DNA of 64,000 nt from an uncultured Bacillota bacterium (GCA_963823655.1 CAWGMK010000010.1:32001-96000), one strand, 5' to 3'; positions 54,706 through 64,000 are shown, numbered from the stretch's first letter. Notes: generated from the letters alone by a model not told the origin. A program made the numbers and translations.

Positions 54706-55770
54706 CTAGATGCGCAGCGCGCCGGCGCGGGTGACGATGGCGGCATCGCGGCCCAGGAGCGCCGCGGGCGGCAGCTCCACGCTCGGCGCGACGCCCGAAT
54801 CGAGCCGGTCGGCCTCCTCGATGAAGAGCGGCACGAGGCCCGGGTCGAACTGCTGGCCGGCGTGCTTGCGCAGCTCGTCGAAGGCCTCGTCCACGGAGCG
54901 GGCGGCGCGGTAGGGGCGGCCGCGCACGATGGCGTCGAAGGCGTCGGCGAGGGCCACGATGCGGGCACCCAGGGGGATCTGCTCGCCCTTCAGGCCATCC
55001 GGGTAGCCGCTGCCGTCCCAGCGCTCGTGGTGGTGGCGGATGATGGGCGTGAAGTCGCGCGACATGCGCAGCGGGTCGCAGATGCGCTCCCCGATCTCGG
55101 GGTGCTCGCGCATGATGCGGAACTCCTCGTCCGTGAGCGGGCCTGGCTTGTGGAGGACGTGCTCCGCGATGCCGATCTTGCCGATGTCGTGGAGCAGCGC
55201 GCCGTAGGCGACGCCCTCCAGCTCGCCGTCGCGCAGGCCGACGTAGGCGGCCAGGCGGGCCGAGCGGTAGGCCAGGTAGCGGCAGTGGTCCTTGAGCCCG
55301 AGGTCCTTGGCCTCGACCGCGTTGGCCAGGGCGACCACGATGTCGTGGGCCTGCTCCATGCGCCGGATGACCTCGCGCGTCCGATACGAGCTGCGCAGGC
55401 GAGCCAGGAGCTCGACCTGCTGGAAGGGCTTGGTGACGAAGTCGTCGGCGCCCGCGTCCAGGGCGGCCACCATGTCCGAGGTGGACGTGTGGGCCGTGAG
55501 CACGATGATGGGCAGCGTCACGGTGCGGTGGTCGGCCCGCAGCCGCCGGCAGATCTCCAGCCCGTCCATGCCAGGCAGGGTGAGGTCCAGGATGACCATG
55601 TCCGGCTGGTGCTCGGCCACGGCGCGCAGCCCGTTGACGCCATCCGCCACGGCGATGACGCTGTAGCCGGCGTCCTCCAGGATGCGGCCCAGGACACGCC
55701 TGACGGCCGCGTCATCCTCGATGACTGCCACGCGGGGACGCACCGTGCCCCGGTGGGCGGTGTGGTCCAA
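54706..55770 (-). CDS. Response regulator with HD-GYP (c-di-GMP phosphodiesterase) output domain
   Basis: REC: IEDD, ILDLTLPGMDG, KPF; HD-GYP: LHDIGK, HHERWDGSGYP, ADAFDA, QFDP; TTG start after GGAGGGAG. Confidence 0.93.
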   Translation of the reverse strand: MDHTAHRGTVRPRVAVIEDDAAVRRVLGRILEDAGYSVIAVADGVNGLRAVAEHQPDMVILDLTLPGMDGLEICRRLRADHRTVTLPIIVLTAHTSTSDMVAALDAGADDFVTKPFQQVELLARLRSSYRTREVIRRMEQAHDIVVALANAVEAKDLGLKDHCRYLAYRSARLAAYVGLRDGELEGVAYGALLHDIGKIGIAEHVLHKPGPLTDEEFRIMREHPEIGERICDPLRMSRDFTPIIRHHHERWDGSGYPDGLKGEQIPLGARIVALADAFDAIVRGRPYRAARSVDEAFDELRKHAGQQFDPGLVPLFIEEADRLDSGVAPSVELPPAALLGRDAAIVTRAGALRI

Positions 55771-55951
55771 GAGTCTCCCTCCACAGCGCCACGACGACTT
55801 GACGCGGGTCGGGCTGGAGTATACCCGCCGGTGCGTTCTGTCACCGGCTTCAGGCGCGGTGTCATCGGCTGTCCCGATGGCCGCGGTCGCCTCGGCACGG
55901 GTGGTGACGCGACGCACGGGCCTTCTGCGATCAGGTGGTAGCGTGACGACC

Positions 55952-56850
55952 ATGAGCGGTCGCGATCTCGGTCGTGCGTTCCGGGCGCACCCGCTGGCGG
56001 TCGCGGCGAGGCTGGCCATGGCGCTGTGCATGGCGCTGGCGGTGCTGACCGTCGGGTCCGTGTCGCTCTGTCGCGGTGCCGGGGTCGCTGGCCGGGCGGC
56101 GCGCCAGCGGTCGCCCTGGCGCAGGGCAAGCCCCCGCTCGACGATCCGGCCGTCCCGGTGCGCATCACCGTGCCCGCCCTCGGCATCGACCTGCCGGTGG
56201 TCTCGAGCGAGCGCACCGTGCCCGGCAACGTGCGCGACTACCCGCTCTGTGACGTGGCCCAGTACTGGGACATCTACGACCTGCCCGGTGCCCCGGGCAC
56301 GACCTGGATCTACGCCCATGCCCAGCCGGGCATGTTCCTGCCGCTGCTGCTGAACGCGGAGGCCACGTCGGGCGAGGGACTGCTGGGTCAGATGGTGACG
56401 CTGCAGCTGAAGGACGGACGCCTGCTGCGCTACCGCATCGTGGAGGTCAAGCAGCACGCCTACAACCGCCGCCTCGCGCTGCGCGCCCGCCCCAGCCAGC
56501 AGCGACTCATCCTGCAGACGAGCGAGGGGCCACCGGGCACCATCCCCAAGCTGCAGGTGGCCGCCAACCTCATCGGCGCCACGTGGACGGATGAGCCAGC
56601 CGCCCAAGGCCCAGCCACGCGCCTGCTGGCAGCCACGGCCGAAGCCGACCGACCGGGCGGCAAGGCGGGGCGCACGGGCGCCGCGAAGCCGACACCGCAG
56701 CCGTCGCCCACGACCATGGCGGCCGGTGGCACCACCGACGCAGCCTCCCTCGCCCTGGGTGGCGGCGCGGTCCTCATCGGCGCCACGCTGGTAGCGATCT
56801 ACATGGTCAGACGGCCCGCTCCCGACCGACGGCAACCACCCCGCCGATAG
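55952..56850 (+). CDS. Sortase-fold protein with atypical catalytic motif (LILQTS) and C-terminal TM (frameshifted)
   Basis: N-terminal signal/TM, PVRITVPALGIDLPV, PGAPGTTWIYAH, YRIVEV, RLILQTSEGP..PKLQVAA. Confidence 0.75.
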
Positions 56851-56898
56851 AGCGGCCTGGGAGGACAGGCGGCAGCGACGATCGCCGCGGTTCGATCG

Positions 56899-57300
56899 TT
56901 ATCGCCCACGACGTCTTCGGTGCCAGGGCTCGAGTCGATAGGTCCGAATCAGGAACTGGTCGAAGAATGGGACAGTGAAATCCGCCAAGCCCAAGGCAGG
57001 CGAGTAGATCAGGCCTTTTTCGATCAGGCTCCCCCTGACAGTGCCGACCTCAGCGCTCGAACCGAGCCCCAGCTTCGATGCGATGGCGCCCGACCGTCGG
57101 GACTCCGGGGCGAGTTCAGCCATGGCTCGCAGGTATGAGATCTCGCGAGGTTGTGTCACGCGTGCCATGCGCCCCTTGAAGAACGACTCATCGAGCTCAG
57201 CCTCAAGCAGTGGAACCGTGGCGGCAACGTCGTCGGTGCTGATCGGCGAATGGTCCGCCACGTTCCAGACCCTGCTCCCGAACTCCTGGATGATGTCCAT
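56899..57300 (-). pseudogene. C-terminal fragment of an AAA+ ATP-binding protein (helical and winged-helix part; no Walker motifs)
   Basis: QEFGSRVW..ELDESFF..YLRAMAEL..RGSLIEKGLIYSP..DFTVPFFDQFL; lower GC than the flanks. Confidence 0.6.
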
Positions 57301-57441
57301 CGAGGCCTCTTTGCTGTGTTCACTGGTGTTTACAACCACCGTGTAAACCAAGATGAACGCTGTCAAGGATGCTGGACAGATCGACGGCCGGATCCTTCGC
57401 GGGATCCGGCCGTCGCTTGTGGTGGCGGAGGTTGGCGTGGG

Positions 57442-60400
57442 CTACGTCCTGGCCAGTCGATGCCGACGGATGAGCCATGCGCCGCTGACGATCATCATGG
57501 CCGCGACGAGGACGATGAAGGCCCAGCCCGTCGGGCCCCCAAGGAATCCACCTGACGTCGACGCGGCCTCGGTCGCGAGGAGTGTGTCCGTGGACGGCTG
57601 CTTGTCGCCGTCACCTGCGCCACCGCCGCTTCCGCTCTCGTCATCGCCAGCGCCGCCATCCCGGACGGGGACGATGCGGATGAAGGCCTGGGCAGTCGCG
57701 GAGATGACCGTGACCGCTGTATCGCGGAACTCTCCAGCCAGCAGGGCCTCCTCGTCGTCAGTGACCGTGACGGTCACGGTGTTCACGTGACGGTCGCCAG
57801 CCTGCCCGGTGACGAAGGCCGTGAACTGGCATTCGTATGTCGCGCCGGCGGCGATGAGGTCGCCGACCGAGTTCGCGCACGTGTTGTTCGTGAGATCCCG
57901 ATTGCGTGGGTCATCCAGGTCGCCCAGCAGGTCGTCGCTCAGGGCCACGATGCCGAGGCTCTCGGGAACGAGGTTCTGGATGGTGATGGTGAAGGTCACG
58001 TCGCCACCCGGCTCTTCCAGCCTGGTCACGGACGGGGTCTTGGTGACCGCGATGGCAGGCACGATATCCGTGATCGTCACCGTCGCGTCGTCAGACGCGA
58101 CGGCCTGGCGACCCTCGAGCGTGGCGGCCCTGGCCGTGACCACGTCGGTCTCGACCGTCCCGCCGACCCCACCCACGAATGCGGTGAAGGCGCAGGCGTA
58201 GGTCGCTCCAGGCGCCAGTGACTGCGGCACGGCGCACGTCCCCTTGCCGTTCACGTCGCCGTGGACGTTGTCCACCAGGCTCGTGAGCGAGACGGCCACA
58301 TTGCCGGTGTTGGTGACGCTGACGGCGAAAGAGACGTCCCCGCCCGGCTCGGGGACGGAGCCCGGAGTGGCGGTCTTGGTGACGGAGATCGTGGGGGTCG
58401 AGCGGATCTTGAACGTGGCCGTGGCCGCGTTGTCAGCCGGATCCGGGTCAGTGGTCTGGCTCGAGACGGTGGCGCTGTTGGAGACGGTCGTCAGGTCGAG
58501 GTAGGTGCCGGGTACGACGGTGGCGTTGACCGTGATGGTGGCGTCGACGCCGACCGGGTGGCTGGCGATCGTGCAGGTGAGCGTGTTACCGACGATCGGC
58601 GCGCAGGTGTATGGCCCGTCATCGACGACGGTGACGCCCTGGAGCTGCGCTGGGAACGTGTCACTGAGGGTGGCGTCGGCTGCGTCGGAGGGACCGGCGT
58701 TGGAGACGCTCAGGGTGTAGGTGACGCTGCCGCCCGAGACGGTCTCGGCCGGGGTGACGCTCTTGGTGACCGAGAGGTCGGCGACCGCTCCCACCTCCAC
58801 CGACGCCGTGTCGCTGTTGGGCAGGGCGTCGGGGACCTGTGGGGTGCGCGCCGCCACCGTGGCCGTGTTGGGGATCGACCGCGCCGTCAGGGAGGCCCAC
58901 CGGCACGACCGCGGTCAAGGTGACCGTGGCCGTCGAGCCGGCCGCCATCGTGGCGGCGTCGCAGGTCAGCACGAACTGGGTGCCGGGGGGCGCCAGCGTG
59001 CAGCCGAGCGACGGCGGCGTCACCGTGCCAAGCGTGACCTGGGTGAAGACAGCCGGGAACGAGTCGGTCACCACGACCCCGCTGGCATCGCTTGGGCCCG
59101 CGTTGGTCACCGTCAGCGTGTAGGTGATCGTCTGGCCGGCGGCGACAGCCACCGGGTCCGGGTTGCCATCCTGCCCCTGCACCTGTTTGACGATGCCGAG
59201 GTCGGCCTGGGCGACCAGCGGGGTGTCGGCGCAGGCGACGTTGTTCGATGAGTCGCTGATCGCGGCTGCGGCCGTCAGCGTGGGGGCGACCTGACGGCAC
59301 GTTGGATCGGGCGGTGCTGGATCGTCGGGGTGATCGAGGACCGCGAGGTTGGGGTAGCCGGCTCCCGGGTCGGGGGCCGTGCTCGCGTCGGCACGAGCCC
59401 GCAGCACCACCGTCGCCGTGGCACCGGCGGGCAGCGCCGCCGCCGGGATGGTGCAGGTGATGGTCTGGCCACTCGGCGCGGCGCAGGTCACGCTGGCCGT
59501 CGATGCCGTCGTGTCGAGCGGCGTAGGTGCGAACGAGAAGCCGGTCGGCAAGGTGTCGGTCACGGTGGCATCGCCAACCACCCCGCTCGTGCCGAGGTTC
59601 TCAACCGTGATCGTGTACGGGAAGGCCGCTCCACCGGCCACGGCCGGTGTGGTGTCCGTGCCGTCGCGGAAGACCTTGGTCAGAGCCAGGTCGAACGTCT
59701 TCAGGTAGGCGACATCGGCGTTGTCGGTCTGGACGGGGTCGCTGGTGAGACCCGACACCGTGGCGCTGTTCGGGAACGGCGCCGTCGCAGTGACCGGGTC
59801 CGCCGCCGTAGCGGTGAACACGATCGAGCCCGCCGACCCGACCGCCAGCGTGGCGGCCCGGCAGGTGACCGGGACATCGAGCGGCTCGCCGGCCGCGGCC
59901 GTCCCGCCGCCGGCCCGGTCACAGGTCAACCCGGCCGGTGCGCTGACGAAGAGCACGGGCGTCACCAGGTCGCTGGCCAGCGGGTCGATGACGGTCACGC
60001 TCTGCGCCACCGACGGCCCGTTGTTCGTCACCCGCAGGGTGAACGTCACGGGCTGAGCGGGAATGATCCCTTCCGCCGTGGCGGGCGTCTGGGCGTCGTT
60101 CGGCGTCGTGCCGCCCGGGCCGGTCGCCAGCTTCGGTGACCGAGAGGTCGGCGGATGTGGCCACGGTGGTCGTGGTGGTCGCGCTGTCGTTGGCAGCGTT
60201 CGGATCGCTGGTCGCCGCGGAGACGGTGGCCGTGTTGCTGATGACCGTGCCGGCGGCGACACTCGCCCCGACCTGGACGATGAGCGTGAAGGTCTGGGTG
60301 GCACCGGCGGCCAGGCTGGCGATCGTGCAGGTGACGGTGCCGTTGCCCCCCACGGCGGGCGTCGTGCAGCTGAAGCCTGCGGGCGCGGTGAGCGAGACGA

Positions 60401-63039
60401 AGGTCGTGCCCGCGGGCAGGGTGTCGGTCAGGCTCACGCTCTGGGCGGCGTTGGGACCGGCGTTGGCGACGGTGATGGTGTAGGTGAGGTTCGCGCCGGC
60501 GATGACCGGGTCGGGACTGTCGGTCTTGGTGATCGAGAGGTCGGCGGAGGTGGCCACGGTGGTGGTGTCGGTGGCGGTGTTGTTGGCCGGGGTCGGGTCG
60601 GTGGTCGAGCTCGAGACGGTGGCCGTGTTGGCCTGAGGGCCCGCCGGGGTCGAGGCTGGCACCGTGTAGGTGACGACCAGCGTCGTGGTGGCACCGGCCA
60701 GGATGGGCCCGAGGGCACAGTCGAAGCTCGGACCGCCTCCGACGTCGGTGCAGGCGGCGGGCAGCGAGGTGCGCGTGAAACCGGCCGGCCAGGTGTCGGA
60801 GAGGCTCACCGCTTGGGCATTCGAAGGTCCGTTATTGATGACGGTGATGGTGTAGGTGCGCGTGGCGCCGTCACCGGCGGTCACGGTGGCGACTCCGTCG
60901 CTCTTGGTGACGGAGAGGTCGGCGGACGTGGCCACGGTATTGGTGTCGGTGGCGGTGTTGTTCGACGCGTTCGGGTCGCTGGTCGAGCTCGAGACGGTGG
61001 CCGTGTTGGCCTGAGGGCCCGCCGGGGTCGAGGCTGGCACCGTGTAGGTGACGACCAGCGTCGTGGTGGCACCGGCCAGGATGGGCCCGAGGGCACAGTC
61101 GAAGCTCGGACCGCCTCCGACGTCGGTGCAGGCCGCGGGCAGCGAGGTGCGCGTGAAACCGGCCGGCCAGGTGTCGGAGAGGCTCACGCCGGTCGCCGTG
61201 CTGGGCCCCGCGTTGCGCACCGTGATGGTGAAGGTGCGGGTCAGGCCGTCACCGGCGGTCACGGTCGTGACCCCGTCGCTCTTGGTGACCGAGAGGTCGG
61301 CGGATGTGGCCACGGTGGTCGTGGTGGTCGCGCTGTCGTTGGCAGCGTTCGGATCGCTGGTCGCCGCGGAGACGGTGGCCGTGTTGCTGATGACCGTGCC
61401 GGCGGCGACACTCGCCCCGACCTGGACGATGAGCGTGAAGGTCTGGGTGGCACCGGCGGCCAGGCTGGCGATCGTGCAGGTGACGGTGCCGTTGCCCCCC
61501 ACGGCGGGCGTCGTGCAGCTGAAGCCTGCGGGCGCGGCGAGCGAGACGAAGGTCGTGCCCGCGGGCAGGGTGTCGGTCAGGCTCACGCTCTGGGCGGCGT
61601 TGGGACCGGCGTTGGCGACGGTGATGGTGTAGGTGAGGTTCGCGCCGGCGATGACCGGGTCGGGACTGTCGGTCTTGGTGACCGAGAGGTCGGCGCGGAG
61701 CGCCGGATCCAACAGCAGGGTCACAGGCGACGCCGTGCACGACGAGCCGTTGCCCGTGCAGGTGCGTGTGTCGGAGGATTGTGGGACCGAGCTGTAACCC
61801 GGAGCTGATGCCGTCAACGTGACCGTCGCCGGACCGCGCCCGGGGTACGTGACGCTGACCGAGAAGCCCCCGGTGGCGTTGGTGCTGGTCCCCCCACCCG
61901 TATACGACACGGTGGGAGAGTTGTTGCAGCCCGTGCACGTGGCCGTGACGGTTGCGCCGGCGATGAGTGGGGTGCCTGTCGGATAGGTTGCGACCGAGCC
62001 GGTGATCGTGACATTCGATTGCGGCGTGATGATGAGGTCCTCGGCGGCCATCTTGCTGGCGCTGACAGACATGTCATCCGCCGGTCCGACCTGCGCCGTC
62101 GGCTGACCGACTGCGTCCGTGGTCGACTCCGCGGCCGCACCCATGTCAGCCGCCGGCGCTTCGTGGGGAGTCGCGTCGAACACGCTCTTGCCGGCCGTGG
62201 CACCGCCTTGTTCGCGCTGTGCGACGGCGTCACTCGCAGCCGCTGAACGTGCGGCACTGATGGTCAACTCAGCCTTGGCAGTCAACTTGTCGAGCGTGGC
62301 TACGACCTCGGTGGCGCCGATGACGGCCACGGCGGCGAGGCGCACGTCGTTGGCGTCTGGCGCTTCGAACGAGGCGACACCCTCATCCCTGACCGACCAA
62401 CGGACGTCCGTGGCTGGCGAGCATGCGTCGGACTGGCCGGGCTCCTGGTCGGACCCGGGTCCGGCGCCATCGCCGGACGTGGTGCAGAGCCAGGCCGAGA
62501 GCTTGGCCACATCACCCACGACCAGGTCGAGCTTGCGCGGCTGGGAGTCGATGACGAGCTTGCGCTCGGGCTCGGCGGGGGCGACGTCGGGCGCAGGCTC
62601 GACTGGAGCCTGCTCGGCCTTGGGCTCGGCGGCCGGCTCCCGGTCGGGCGCCGTGTCGGGCTTCTGTTCCTTATCGGCCTTCGGTCCCTGTGCCCTGGGC
62701 TCGGGCGCCGGTTCCTGCGTCGTGGGCTCGGGCGCGGCCTCCTGGGCGGGCGCAGCCTGGGGCTCGGGCTCGGACGTTGGGCGGATCGGCGGGAGCCGGT
62801 GCGGGCTCCGAAGCCTGGACCTCCGCGGCAGGGGCGGGCTCCTCGGCGGCCACCTCGGGCTCGGGTGCCGGCGATGGCTCGGCAGCGACAGGCTGGGCAG
62901 AGGCGTCCGCCTCCGCATCCTGGGCGATGACCAGCGCCGGGGTCAGCAACAGCGACGACGTCAGCAGGATGACCTGCAGGACGGCCAGCAGGGCGGCCAG
63001 GCGGTGGACGCGCGGGGACACGGAGGTGCTCGGAGCCAA
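57442..63039 (-). CDS. Large cell-surface protein (~1860 aa) with tandem DUF11-type Ig-like repeats and a C-terminal QPSTDT-TM-basic tail (frameshifted)
   Basis: Signal peptide, Pro/Glu-rich linker, many ADLSVTK..TYTITV.NAGP..LTDTLP..NTATVS..DP..N repeats. Confidence 0.88.
60131..61673 (-). repeat. Near-identical internal domain repeats in A-B-B-A order (393, 378, 378, 393+1 bp)
   Basis: DLS(V/I)TK boundaries at 61674, 61281, 60903, 60525 and 60131. Confidence 0.9.
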
Positions 63040-63253
63040 ATCGCTTCTCCCGTGGAAACCAGCGGTCATCGACGCTGGTGGATGATGACAGACGGAGCGA
63101 ACCGTACCAAGAAAGCCCCGCACGGTTCGCTGCTGGCGCGAGACGATACTCGAGCCACGGCGCTTTCCGCACCGGGCCTGATAGTCCACCGGAGCCGTAG
63201 TACTTTCCCGAGCCCGCGGTCCGCGACGCCTCAGGCCCTCCACCGAGGCCCCG

Positions 63254-63295
63254 AAAAGCCGACGGCCGGGTCCCTGGTGGGAGCCCGGCCGTCGG
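63254..63295 (-). terminator. Intrinsic terminator after the upstream surface-protein gene
   Basis: 12-bp stem CCGACGGCCGGG/CCCGGCCGTCGG followed by CTTTT on the minus strand. Confidence 0.7.
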
Positions 63296-63316
63296 GAGTG
63301 TCGCGATGGATGCTGG

Positions 63317-64000
63317 CTAGATCTCGGAGGTGCGGACCCTCCGGATGACCCAGCCCGCGGACAGGATGACCGTGGCCGACATCAGGATCGATGAGGATCC
63401 AGTTCATCGGGCTGTCGAGCGGACCGCTCGCGGCCGACACGGTGTCGGTCGGGATGAGCGTGTCCGTGGGAGGCTGGCCACCGCCGCCACCGCCACCACC
63501 AGCACCGCCGATCCAACCGATCTCCTCATCATCCTCGGCGCAGACCCTGTCGGACTGGCTCTGGGAGGGACCGGCCACGGCACAGGCCGTGAAAGTATTG
63601 ACGTGCGGGATGGTGTCCTGCGGCGGATCGGCGACCACTTCCGGCTCGACGAAGAACGTCGCTTCGAACTGGCACGAGGCACCCGCCGGCAGCGTCACGC
63701 CGACCTGGCAGTCCGCATCACCCTGGAGGGCTCCGAAGTCGGAGTCGACGAGTGACACGATGCTGACCGGGACCTTCGACGTGTTGGTCACGGTGAAGGT
63801 GAAGGTGACGTCCTCACCCTCGATGTCGGCGATGGGCGTGTCGGCCGTCTTCACGACCGCCAGCTTGATGGCCGGGATGTCGAGGTCGTCGCAGACCTCA
63901 GGGGTCTGGTCGGAGTCGGCGCAGGCGGTGTTCAGGACATCGCCCTTGTCGAGGTCGGCCTGGGTGATGGTGTGGCTGCCGGTGCAGGTGATGCTGGCAC
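63317..64000 (-). CDS. C-terminal part of a second Ig-repeat surface protein with a QPPTDT-TM-basic tail (5' part outside the window)
   Basis: VVKTAD..VTFTFTVTN..SLVDSDFG domain, Gly8 linker, QPPTDTL, stitched WILILMSATVILSAGWVIRRVRTSEI*. Confidence 0.85.

Follow-up and report, generated by a model that had tools for sequence, protein, structure and literature searches.

The window analysed here is a stretch of 64,000 nucleotides (CAWGMK010000010.1:32001-96000), and between 55952 and 64000 it carries a gene for a sortase-fold enzyme that has serine at the position of the nucleophile cysteine. The host is an uncultured bacterium of freshwater and soil. Beside the enzyme gene lie the genes of two surface proteins, A and B, which end in the same kind of tail, x-P-x-T-D-[T/M] followed by a helix and basic residues. 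We propose, with a probability of roughly 0.6, that the region encodes a dedicated sortase-type sorting module with a serine nucleophile for xPxTD[T/M] signals, in which the catalysis, the scissile bond and the acceptor are what we infer. The observed basis of this proposal is the fold, the residue equivalences, the conservation, the adjacency of enzyme and tail genes, their co-occurrence, and the absence of a Cys sortase from most of the genomes scanned. To our knowledge, all described sortases are cysteine transpeptidases, and passages of reviews and abstracts characterize them as such. In the full-text literature, with subscription-only papers outside the scope, nothing was found on serine sortases or on sortases of Limnocylindria.

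The enzyme gene and the four residues discussed below are located as follows.

55952..56850, plus strand: serine-variant sortase gene (open reading frame (ORF) 56026-56850, Pfam Sortase match, Foldseek)
56521..56523, plus strand: Ser166, codon AGC, at the nucleophile-Cys position, motif LILQTSEGP (codon read, alignments)
56317..56319, plus strand: His98, codon CAT, at the catalytic-His position, motif TWIYAHAQ (codon read, alignment)
56548..56550, plus strand: Lys175, codon AAG, at the sortase-Arg position on strand beta8, motif IPKLQV (alignment with SrtA)
56248..56250, plus strand: Cys75, codon TGT, in the family-specific insert YPLCDVAQYW (family conservation)

The sortase-domain ORF (56026-56850) encodes 274 residues. 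The enzyme is laid out as an N-terminal membrane anchor, the sortase domain, a Pro/Thr-rich linker, a C-terminal transmembrane helix and an RRP tail. The ORF contains TWIYAHAQ, LILQTSEGPPGT and IPKLQV, and the Ser (AGC at 56521-56523), His and Lys that an earlier note on this DNA had picked out in a sortase-fold ORF are all present. In the assembly, the gene loses its reading frame at two places, near 55963-56065 and at 56599/56654. The N-terminal transmembrane segment from 55952 is thus out of frame with the sortase domain from 56026, and a compensated double frameshift at about 56599-56654 garbles some 20 residues after the domain ('PKAQPRACWQPRPKPTD').

By sequence, the window ORF lies barely above the cut-off of Pfam Sortase (PF04203; 27.8 bits against 26.6), with relatives at 22-40 bits, and below that of the NCBIfam class F sortase model NF033748 (18.9 bits against 166). 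An AlphaFold model of the ORF had a mean predicted local distance difference test score (pLDDT) of 77, with a core above 85. The top Foldseek matches of this model were all sortases, led by Streptococcus pyogenes SrtA (E 2e-7, TM-score 0.70 on the target) and followed by SrtE and SrtC. An intact homologue with 90% identity, P0001, gave a model with pLDDT 80.5 (core 89-98). This model aligned with S. pyogenes SrtA in VIA-align at Z 15.7, with a root-mean-square deviation of 3.1 and 139 aligned residues; 130 chains spanning classes A, C, E and F were matched at Z>=8. In both models the enzyme has the eight-stranded beta-barrel fold of sortases.

The residues were matched to those of known sortases in three ways. 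A family profile run against the sequences of the Protein Data Bank (PDB) aligned LvLqTSeGppGTvpkLqvaA to LTLVTCTDPEATERIIVHA of S. agalactiae SrtA, at a weak E of 0.5. An hhalign comparison with a class-F-like sortase of a related genome paired LQTS with LQTC and IYAHAQ with LFGHAH ('YAHAQ' with 'FGHAH'), and placed YPLCDVAQYW as an insertion. Both structural models put the Ser at the end of a beta-strand and the His after another strand, which matches the placement of the catalytic residues in solved sortases. Since the three agree, we equate Ser166 with the nucleophile Cys, His98 with the catalytic His and Lys175 with the Arg. The catalytic Cys of the TLxTC strand is thus replaced by Ser in the window enzyme, and the conserved Arg at the start of beta8 by Lys175.

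A protein search in which 8,000 candidates were scored returned 365 relatives, the few named ones being labelled sortase of Limnocylindrales or Chloroflexota metagenome-assembled genomes (MAGs). A scan of species-representative genomes gave 118 relatives, from which 78 loci were kept; nearly all of their records are Chloroflexota, Chloroflexia or Limnocylindria MAGs, and one is Dormiibacterota. These loci and the window supplied 89 domain copies. With HMMER, 558 clusters out of 1.84 billion representatives reached E<=1e-3, 132 of them E<=1e-30. The nucleophile column is Ser in 84/84 copies of the loci and window (5 gaps) and in 135/140 among the best 150 of the 558 representatives (Gly 3, Pro 1, Cys 1; 13 gaps). 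The corresponding counts are 85/85 and 143/147 for His98, and 85/85 and 145/145 for Cys75. Lys175 is K in 73/84 (R 5, N 2, I 2, V 2) and 123/138. The conservation of the QTSxG motif expected from a serine enzyme was thus borne out, whereas the Ser-His-Lys set suggested in the earlier note held for Ser and His and only in part for Lys, which is common and not invariant. Judged from these alignments, Ser at the nucleophile position is a fixed trait of the enzyme family.

The codons point the same way. Ser166 is encoded by AGC in 78, AGT in 5 and TCG in 1 of 84 copies; AGY therefore accounts for 83/84, against 38% among 1,048 Ser codons of the same domains. AGY is one transversion away from TGY (Cys), and the argument from the two classes of serine codons is an established one. 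The lock on AGY thus indicates strong selection on the residue since a Cys-to-Ser change.

Two tandem Ser-sortase domains per protein were observed in P0065, P0070, P0074, P0081 and P0110 and at loci L029, L069 and L073, each domain with its own QTS, His and Cys pair. A Ser-His-Asp triad through Asp76 was considered and rejected, as Asp76 is not conserved (D 90, N 39, G 10, others); Asn68 is likewise not conserved.

PF04203 was scanned across 10 genomes, and the sequences were read for G001-G005. Ser-type genes are the only sortase genes in seven of the ten: G001, G002, G004 and G005, and also G186, G188 and G227, for which the call rests on coordinates that coincide with family matches. G003 has two Cys sortases ('LALQAC' and 'MTLQTC') in addition to two Ser types, and G094 has one class-F-like Cys sortase.

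The same data bear on whether the protein is an enzyme at all. It could be a pseudo-enzyme whose fold persists without catalytic activity and serves tail-bearing proteins as binder, chaperone or membrane scaffold, in which case the tail would be a plain membrane anchor. Described sortases require the Cys that is Ser here, the Arg is Lys, the sequence matches to sortase models are weak, and the few members with Gly or Pro at the site indicate that the fold tolerates its loss. However, former catalytic sites normally drift, and here no columns are more conserved than Q-T-S, His and G-x-x-G-T, in sequences that share only 31-44% identity, with the Ser codon held at AGY in all copies but one. In the four Gly or Pro members (P0187, P0239, P0241, P0263), Lys175 is lost in 4/4 and His98 in 2/4, and Cys75 is kept in all; from their sequences, these are likely to be degenerate, inactive copies. 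The joint loss suggests that Ser, His and Lys behave as one functional unit, as under joint selection. Ser-type genes are, moreover, the sole sortase-fold genes in the seven genomes named above and are present in 113/121 genomes of a family-level sample described below. A pseudo-enzyme is thus improbable.

The invariance of Cys75 raises the question of a relocated nucleophile, with Ser166 in a supporting role. Cys75 is found in 145/145 of the best 150 of 558 representatives, against 135/140 for Ser166. It is retained in the members without Ser and lies in the family-specific insert, next to what known structures would place as the groove side of the fold. However, 112/116 domain copies have a second Cys some 35 residues beyond QTS ('PRxC'). 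The four copies without it are Arg-rich after 'EGP' and resemble frameshifted gene calls. Both Cys residues are invariant in 37/37 aligned sequences, and most family members end 0-4 residues past the second one; in the window, the Cys of 'PRAC' is garbled by the frameshifts at about 56599-56654. The chain of the P0001 model is confident up to the second Cys (block pLDDT 93) and shows one isolated beta-bridge at the Cys of PLCD (residue 104) and another at the Arg of PRAC (residue 227), which is the pattern of a disulfide in an exported protein. P0245 (LVLQTCETWS), the single relative with a Cys nucleophile, retains both structural Cys residues beside the canonical one, which argues against Cys75 as a relocated nucleophile. 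We consider that role very unlikely; on the models and the conservation, Cys75 and the Cys of 'PRAC' probably form a structural disulfide.

The presumed substrates are encoded on the opposite strand.

57442..63069, minus strand: surface protein A, about 1,850 residues (ORFs, Pfam and NCBIfam domains)
57442..57621, minus strand: sorting-signal-like tail of protein A, with a Gly-rich linker, QPSTDTL (57580-57600), a spacer of about 19 residues, a transmembrane helix and RRHRLART
63317..64000, minus strand: 3' part of surface protein B, at least 769 residues, with DUF7507 repeats and then the tail; it runs off the window

Both are repeat proteins with DUF11 and/or DUF7507 repeats, and both point towards the sortase gene. 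Protein A has a signal peptide, an acidic Pro-rich region, DUF11 repeats, an isopeptide-type domain and DUF7507 repeats. Its start is approximate, near 63006-63069, and its frame is interrupted near 62771, 60134 and about 58870, which leaves four ORF pieces. Its C-terminus, which ends at 57442, reads GDGDK-QPSTDTL-LATEAASTSGGFLGGPTGW-AFIVLVAAMMIVSGAWLI-RRHRLART. The tail of protein B consists of G8-QPPTDTL (63456-63476), a spacer, a transmembrane helix and RRVRTSEI; it reads GGGGGGGG-QPPTDTL-IPTDTVSAASGPLDSP... and continues in another frame as ILMSATVILSAGWVI-RRVRTSEI. The helix and RRVR tail (63320-63403) are thus out of frame with QPPTDTL in the window; at the related locus L003, the protein B tail is readable in one frame. 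No LPxTG-like motif was found at the C-termini of proteins A and B. The two motifs, the Gly-rich linkers, the helices and the RRxR tails described in the earlier note are therefore all there, and its description of two tripartite signals needs one amendment: in protein B the helix and tail are separated from the motif by an indel at 63390.

Stop-to-stop ORFs in the loci were checked for a C-terminal helix and basic tail, and x-P-x-T-D-[T/M] tails recurred beside enzyme genes. An alignment of 28 such tails has the motif column [Q/K/L/S/T/M]-[P/K]-[P/S/A/E/D]-T-[D/N/A]-[T/M]. The Thr is invariant (28/28), Arg-Arg is present in at least 90%, and a hydrophobic helix followed by a basic tail stands at the extreme C-terminus. 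The PxTD element that the enzyme had been suggested to recognize thus belongs to a tail family linked to the enzyme, although its core is T-D-[T/M] with Pro at -1 or -2 (as in QKPTDM) and not strictly PxTD. In the tails of the enzyme clade that includes the window (clade 1, defined below), the spacer from motif to helix is about 20-25 residues, often with a second TD[TS]. The LPXTG anchor model TIGR01167 matched 10/28 tails weakly (best E 8.5e-4), and similarly weak matches were obtained with MYXO-CTERM (10) and GVDTG_CTERM (4); none of the curated CTERM models gave a significant match to the 28 tails. Weak tail matches at L092, L093, L096, L097 and L099-L104 were rejected as ordinary membrane proteins or other frames.

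Doubled motifs such as PPTDMLLVTDT and QPPTDTLIPTDT are frequent in clade-1 tails (L003-L022 and the window, 57540-57600). These tails also share a conserved G-G-x-x-G-x-P-x-x-W before the helix, so that the spacer far exceeds that of LPXTG signals in length.

In a quick tree of 83 rows, from which six short domain copies were omitted, the window's enzyme falls in a clade of 24 enzymes with 100% support in the Shimodaira-Hasegawa-like approximate likelihood ratio test (SH-aLRT). The tail profile was run over all six frames of the loci. A gene with the tail converges on the enzyme gene in 22/22 loci (L002-L023) and in the window; L001, with only about 130 flanking bases, could not be judged. 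Five of these loci (L002, L005, L015, L016, L023) have the tail neighbour despite being absent from the tail profile, and some are themselves split by frameshifts. The recurrence in all 22 testable loci indicates that the shared tail is not due to chance. The neighbouring surface-protein ORFs range from 138 to 2,469 residues and differ in their domains, and the presumed substrates have domains characteristic of the cargo of sortases (SpaA-like, isopeptide, DUF11). The genes of 9 further enzymes, which form a second clade (support 93), each follow immediately downstream of a gene whose product is unrelated and has no Pfam match. That product has a tail of this kind too, with HIYNFE-x-SPATDT at the motif and then a helix and LRRR, and the genes are ordered differently.

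Co-occurrence was examined in a family-level sample of 121 genomes from the taxonomic family of G005 (G212 counts only in the tallies of this sample). The enzyme family is present in 113/121, and the clade-1 tail profile matches 2/121, G005 and G180. The same two genomes are the only ones of the 121 with a full-length clade-1 enzyme (381.7 and 358.1 bits, respectively), in each of which at most 300 bases separate tail and enzyme gene. Among 151 genomes sampled across the class, the tail turned up in one, which is the query; among 151 sampled across the phylum, four have the enzyme family, and all four are also in the family-level sample. The Ser family is therefore lineage-specific and nearly universal within its lineage, and the clade-1 cassette is sparse. 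The number of TD-type tails per genome is small: two in G005 (the neighbour and a 1,994-residue ORF ending in MPPTDML), one in G002 and three matches in G180. Tail and Ser enzyme thus keep company as the earlier note had anticipated, both by adjacency at 22/22 clade-1 loci and by presence in the same 2/121 genomes, and this locus links one enzyme clade physically and phyletically to the TD-type tail.

An unlinked enzyme could nevertheless process the tail, for example a protease of the rhomboid, CPBP or exosortase-like type, or a Cys sortase encoded elsewhere; the adjacency would then be inherited synteny. The 23 clade-1 places share flanking genes and possibly derive from one ancestral arrangement, Cys sortases are encoded in G003 (two) and G094 (one) with one partial gene in G180, and the tails weakly match several CTERM models. 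However, tail and enzyme stay paired while the neighbours vary greatly (ORFs of 138 to 2,469 residues), and the second clade is paired with an unrelated protein that has the same tail in another gene order. Enzyme and tail co-occur in two of the 121 genomes and are jointly missing from the other 119. The tail-bearing genomes G002 and G005 have no Cys sortase. Of the curated models, none was significant, the best value being the E of 8.5e-4 for the LPXTG anchor. Processing by an unlinked enzyme is thus unlikely.

Adapting the sortase scheme to this module, proteins A and B would be exported by their signal peptides and retained in the membrane by the C-terminal transmembrane helix and the Arg-rich tail. 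In the membrane-anchored Ser-sortase, the groove that accommodates LPXTG in other sortases would bind x-P-x-T-D-[T/M]. With His98 as activator and Lys175 assisting where the Arg usually stands, Ser166 may then attack the bond after Thr, a position placed by analogy with the T-G bond. An amine of the cell envelope would next resolve the acyl-enzyme ester, with water as the less likely acceptor. The two invariant cysteines, Cys75 and that of 'PRAC', would form a structural disulfide and not serve as nucleophile. Transpeptidase genes of the penicillin-binding protein (PBP) type are present in 3/3 genomes tested (G001, G002, G005), at 3-5 each, which makes a peptidoglycan acceptor plausible.

Several observations weigh against a serine sortase module. 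By sequence, the likeness to sortases is weak (Pfam 27.8 bits, class F 18.9 bits, PDB sequences E 0.05-0.7). Sortase A engineered from Cys to Ser is essentially inactive, so that a working Ser enzyme would have to make up for this by other changes. The Lys175 column varies, with V, R, E, N and I also seen. G180 has an extra partial, frameshifted sortase-like gene in which the nucleophile is unreadable. At 41/79 places of family members there is no tail-bearing neighbour, and the enzymes there stand in housekeeping surroundings. No TD-type tail was found in G001 or G004, both of which have Ser-type enzymes. Finally, the 23 clade-1 places share their left flank, and their adjacency counts as one inherited arrangement and not as 23 independent ones.

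A broader reading, to which we give even odds, is that Limnocylindria swapped the Cys sortase wholesale for a Ser-His lineage whose sub-clades each read their own non-LPXTG signal, the window's clade anchoring giant x-P-x-T-D-[T/M] adhesins covalently. A fixed Ser at the sortase nucleophile site would change the definition of sortases as cysteine transpeptidases. If the module works as proposed, it would be the first natural serine sortase system and an independent Cys-to-Ser switch within a transpeptidase superfamily. It would also be a source of oxidation-insensitive ligases with new specificities and of new recognition motifs for protein ligation. The display of large adhesins by a widespread uncultured class of soil and freshwater Chloroflexota would be explained, and an enzyme would be assigned to C-terminal tails that no curated signal library recognizes.

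The window is an error-prone assembly in which indels split the sortase and surface-protein genes. Contigs from three independent DNA runs (three studies) were compared with positions 55900-64000. One-base indels between window and contigs were seen in all three runs at 55963, 55994, 55998, 56065, 56599 and 56654, in two runs at 60134, and in one run at 62771 and 63390. These sites coincide with the frame breaks of the enzyme and of both surface proteins, and the short-read contigs remove the frameshifts, so the genes are intact in the population. Positions 56521-56523 are covered by contigs of all three runs, with no change there among the matches listed. As this comparison covers the listed matches only, the case for Ser against a misread Cys codon, the error that the earlier note had allowed for, rests on the homologues, which have Ser at this position. 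Locus L003 is near-identical to the window (97.6% identity, with 36 gap openings over 7 kb).

Further one-base indels relative to short-read contigs occur at 63089, 63245 and 63249. L003 is a related long-read MAG locus with its own set of indels (the 36 gap openings relative to the window). One metatranscriptome run gave contigs on 57394-57567, 57713-57865, 59225-59396 and 63409-63626 and none on the enzyme gene; these share few words with the window and DNA carry-over is possible, so no conclusion on expression was drawn.

The sortase region of the window has a guanine-plus-cytosine (GC) content of about 70%. The window is part of contig C10 (C10:32001-96000) of the 2.3 Mb bin G000. This contig has about 70% GC up to about 109.5 kb and about 53% beyond, with a boundary near C10:109500, and the remainder of C10 and of the bin spans 45-58%, with the 12 other contigs at 45-56%. 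This high-GC block, about 109.5 kb long, appears either to have been joined on chimerically or to be foreign to the bin, which is that of another organism. Within G000, the window's enzyme and its two tails are the sole enzyme and tail matches; as the bin is mostly another organism outside this block, it is unusable for co-occurrence within the own genome.

One further gene stands on the other side of the enzyme gene.

54706..55875, minus strand: response regulator with an HD-GYP-type domain, divergent from the enzyme gene (Pfam Response_reg 5e-33, HD_5 1e-37)

Each of the 23 clade-1 places, counting 22 loci and the window, has this gene next to that of the sortase. The regulator gene is likely to encode a cyclic di-GMP phosphodiesterase and may link adhesin display to cyclic di-GMP signalling. 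Between the enzyme gene and protein A lies an ORF of 155 residues (56899-57366, minus strand) in a stretch of lower GC (64.5%, 57000-57999); it has no match in Pfam or NCBIfam. The gap between the two genes is about 590 bases in the window and L003, and most of the remaining clade-1 loci have about 80-150 bases there; the difference points to a small insertion or to the remains of a gene. In the C-terminal anchor of the enzyme itself (56700-56850, and L002-L020), the pattern P-[hydrophobic or T]-D-[A/T]-[M/T/A]-x-L is partly conserved just ahead of the transmembrane helix and RRP. The stretch before the helix reads GGTTDAASL in the window and EPLDAMTL or GTTDTMTL at other loci. It loosely resembles the T-D-[T/M]-L of the substrates and could be a pseudo-signal or a self-processing site.

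Among known systems, the class F and E sortases of Actinomycetota and Chloroflexota (PF04203, NF033748) are similar in their beta-barrel fold (Z 13.8-15.1 to SrtE and SrtF), the position of the His, the N-terminal membrane anchor, and known or inferred substrates with a motif, a transmembrane helix and a basic tail; the 'LQT-x' strand aligns with the 'MTLQTC' of a class-F-like sortase. The window enzyme differs from them in having Ser for Cys and, in most members, Lys for Arg, and in the YPLCDVAQYW insert with a C-terminal Cys, likely as a disulfide. Its signal is x-P-x-T-D-[T/M] and not LPXTG or LAXTG, and it reaches 18.9 bits with the class F model, where 166 are needed. Dedicated sortases encoded next to their few substrates are also known from class B and the pilus-specific class C; here the genes of enzyme and presumed substrates adjoin likewise, with 1-3 tail proteins per genome. 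The C-terminal transmembrane helix of the enzyme is shared with class C, as are substrates with SpaA-like and isopeptide domains, whereas the nucleophile and the motif differ from both classes. Nothing that points to pilin polymerization emerged, with no search aimed at it.

The likeness to PBPs is a functional analogy only: a Ser acyl-enzyme ester can be resolved by an amine, whereas the fold and the active-site architecture are unrelated. PBPs show that transpeptidation on peptidoglycan is chemically feasible with Ser. The tails share with LPXTG signals (TIGR01167) the tripartite arrangement of a Pro/Thr motif, a hydrophobic helix and a basic tail, with the Thr invariant here. They differ in that the Leu of position 1 is not conserved (Q, K, S, T, L, M), Asp takes the place of Gly, and the Pro can shift. 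A passage of PMC9210967 lists LPxTD among sortase anchor motifs; going by that list, Asp after Thr is not unheard of in the signals of Cys sortases.

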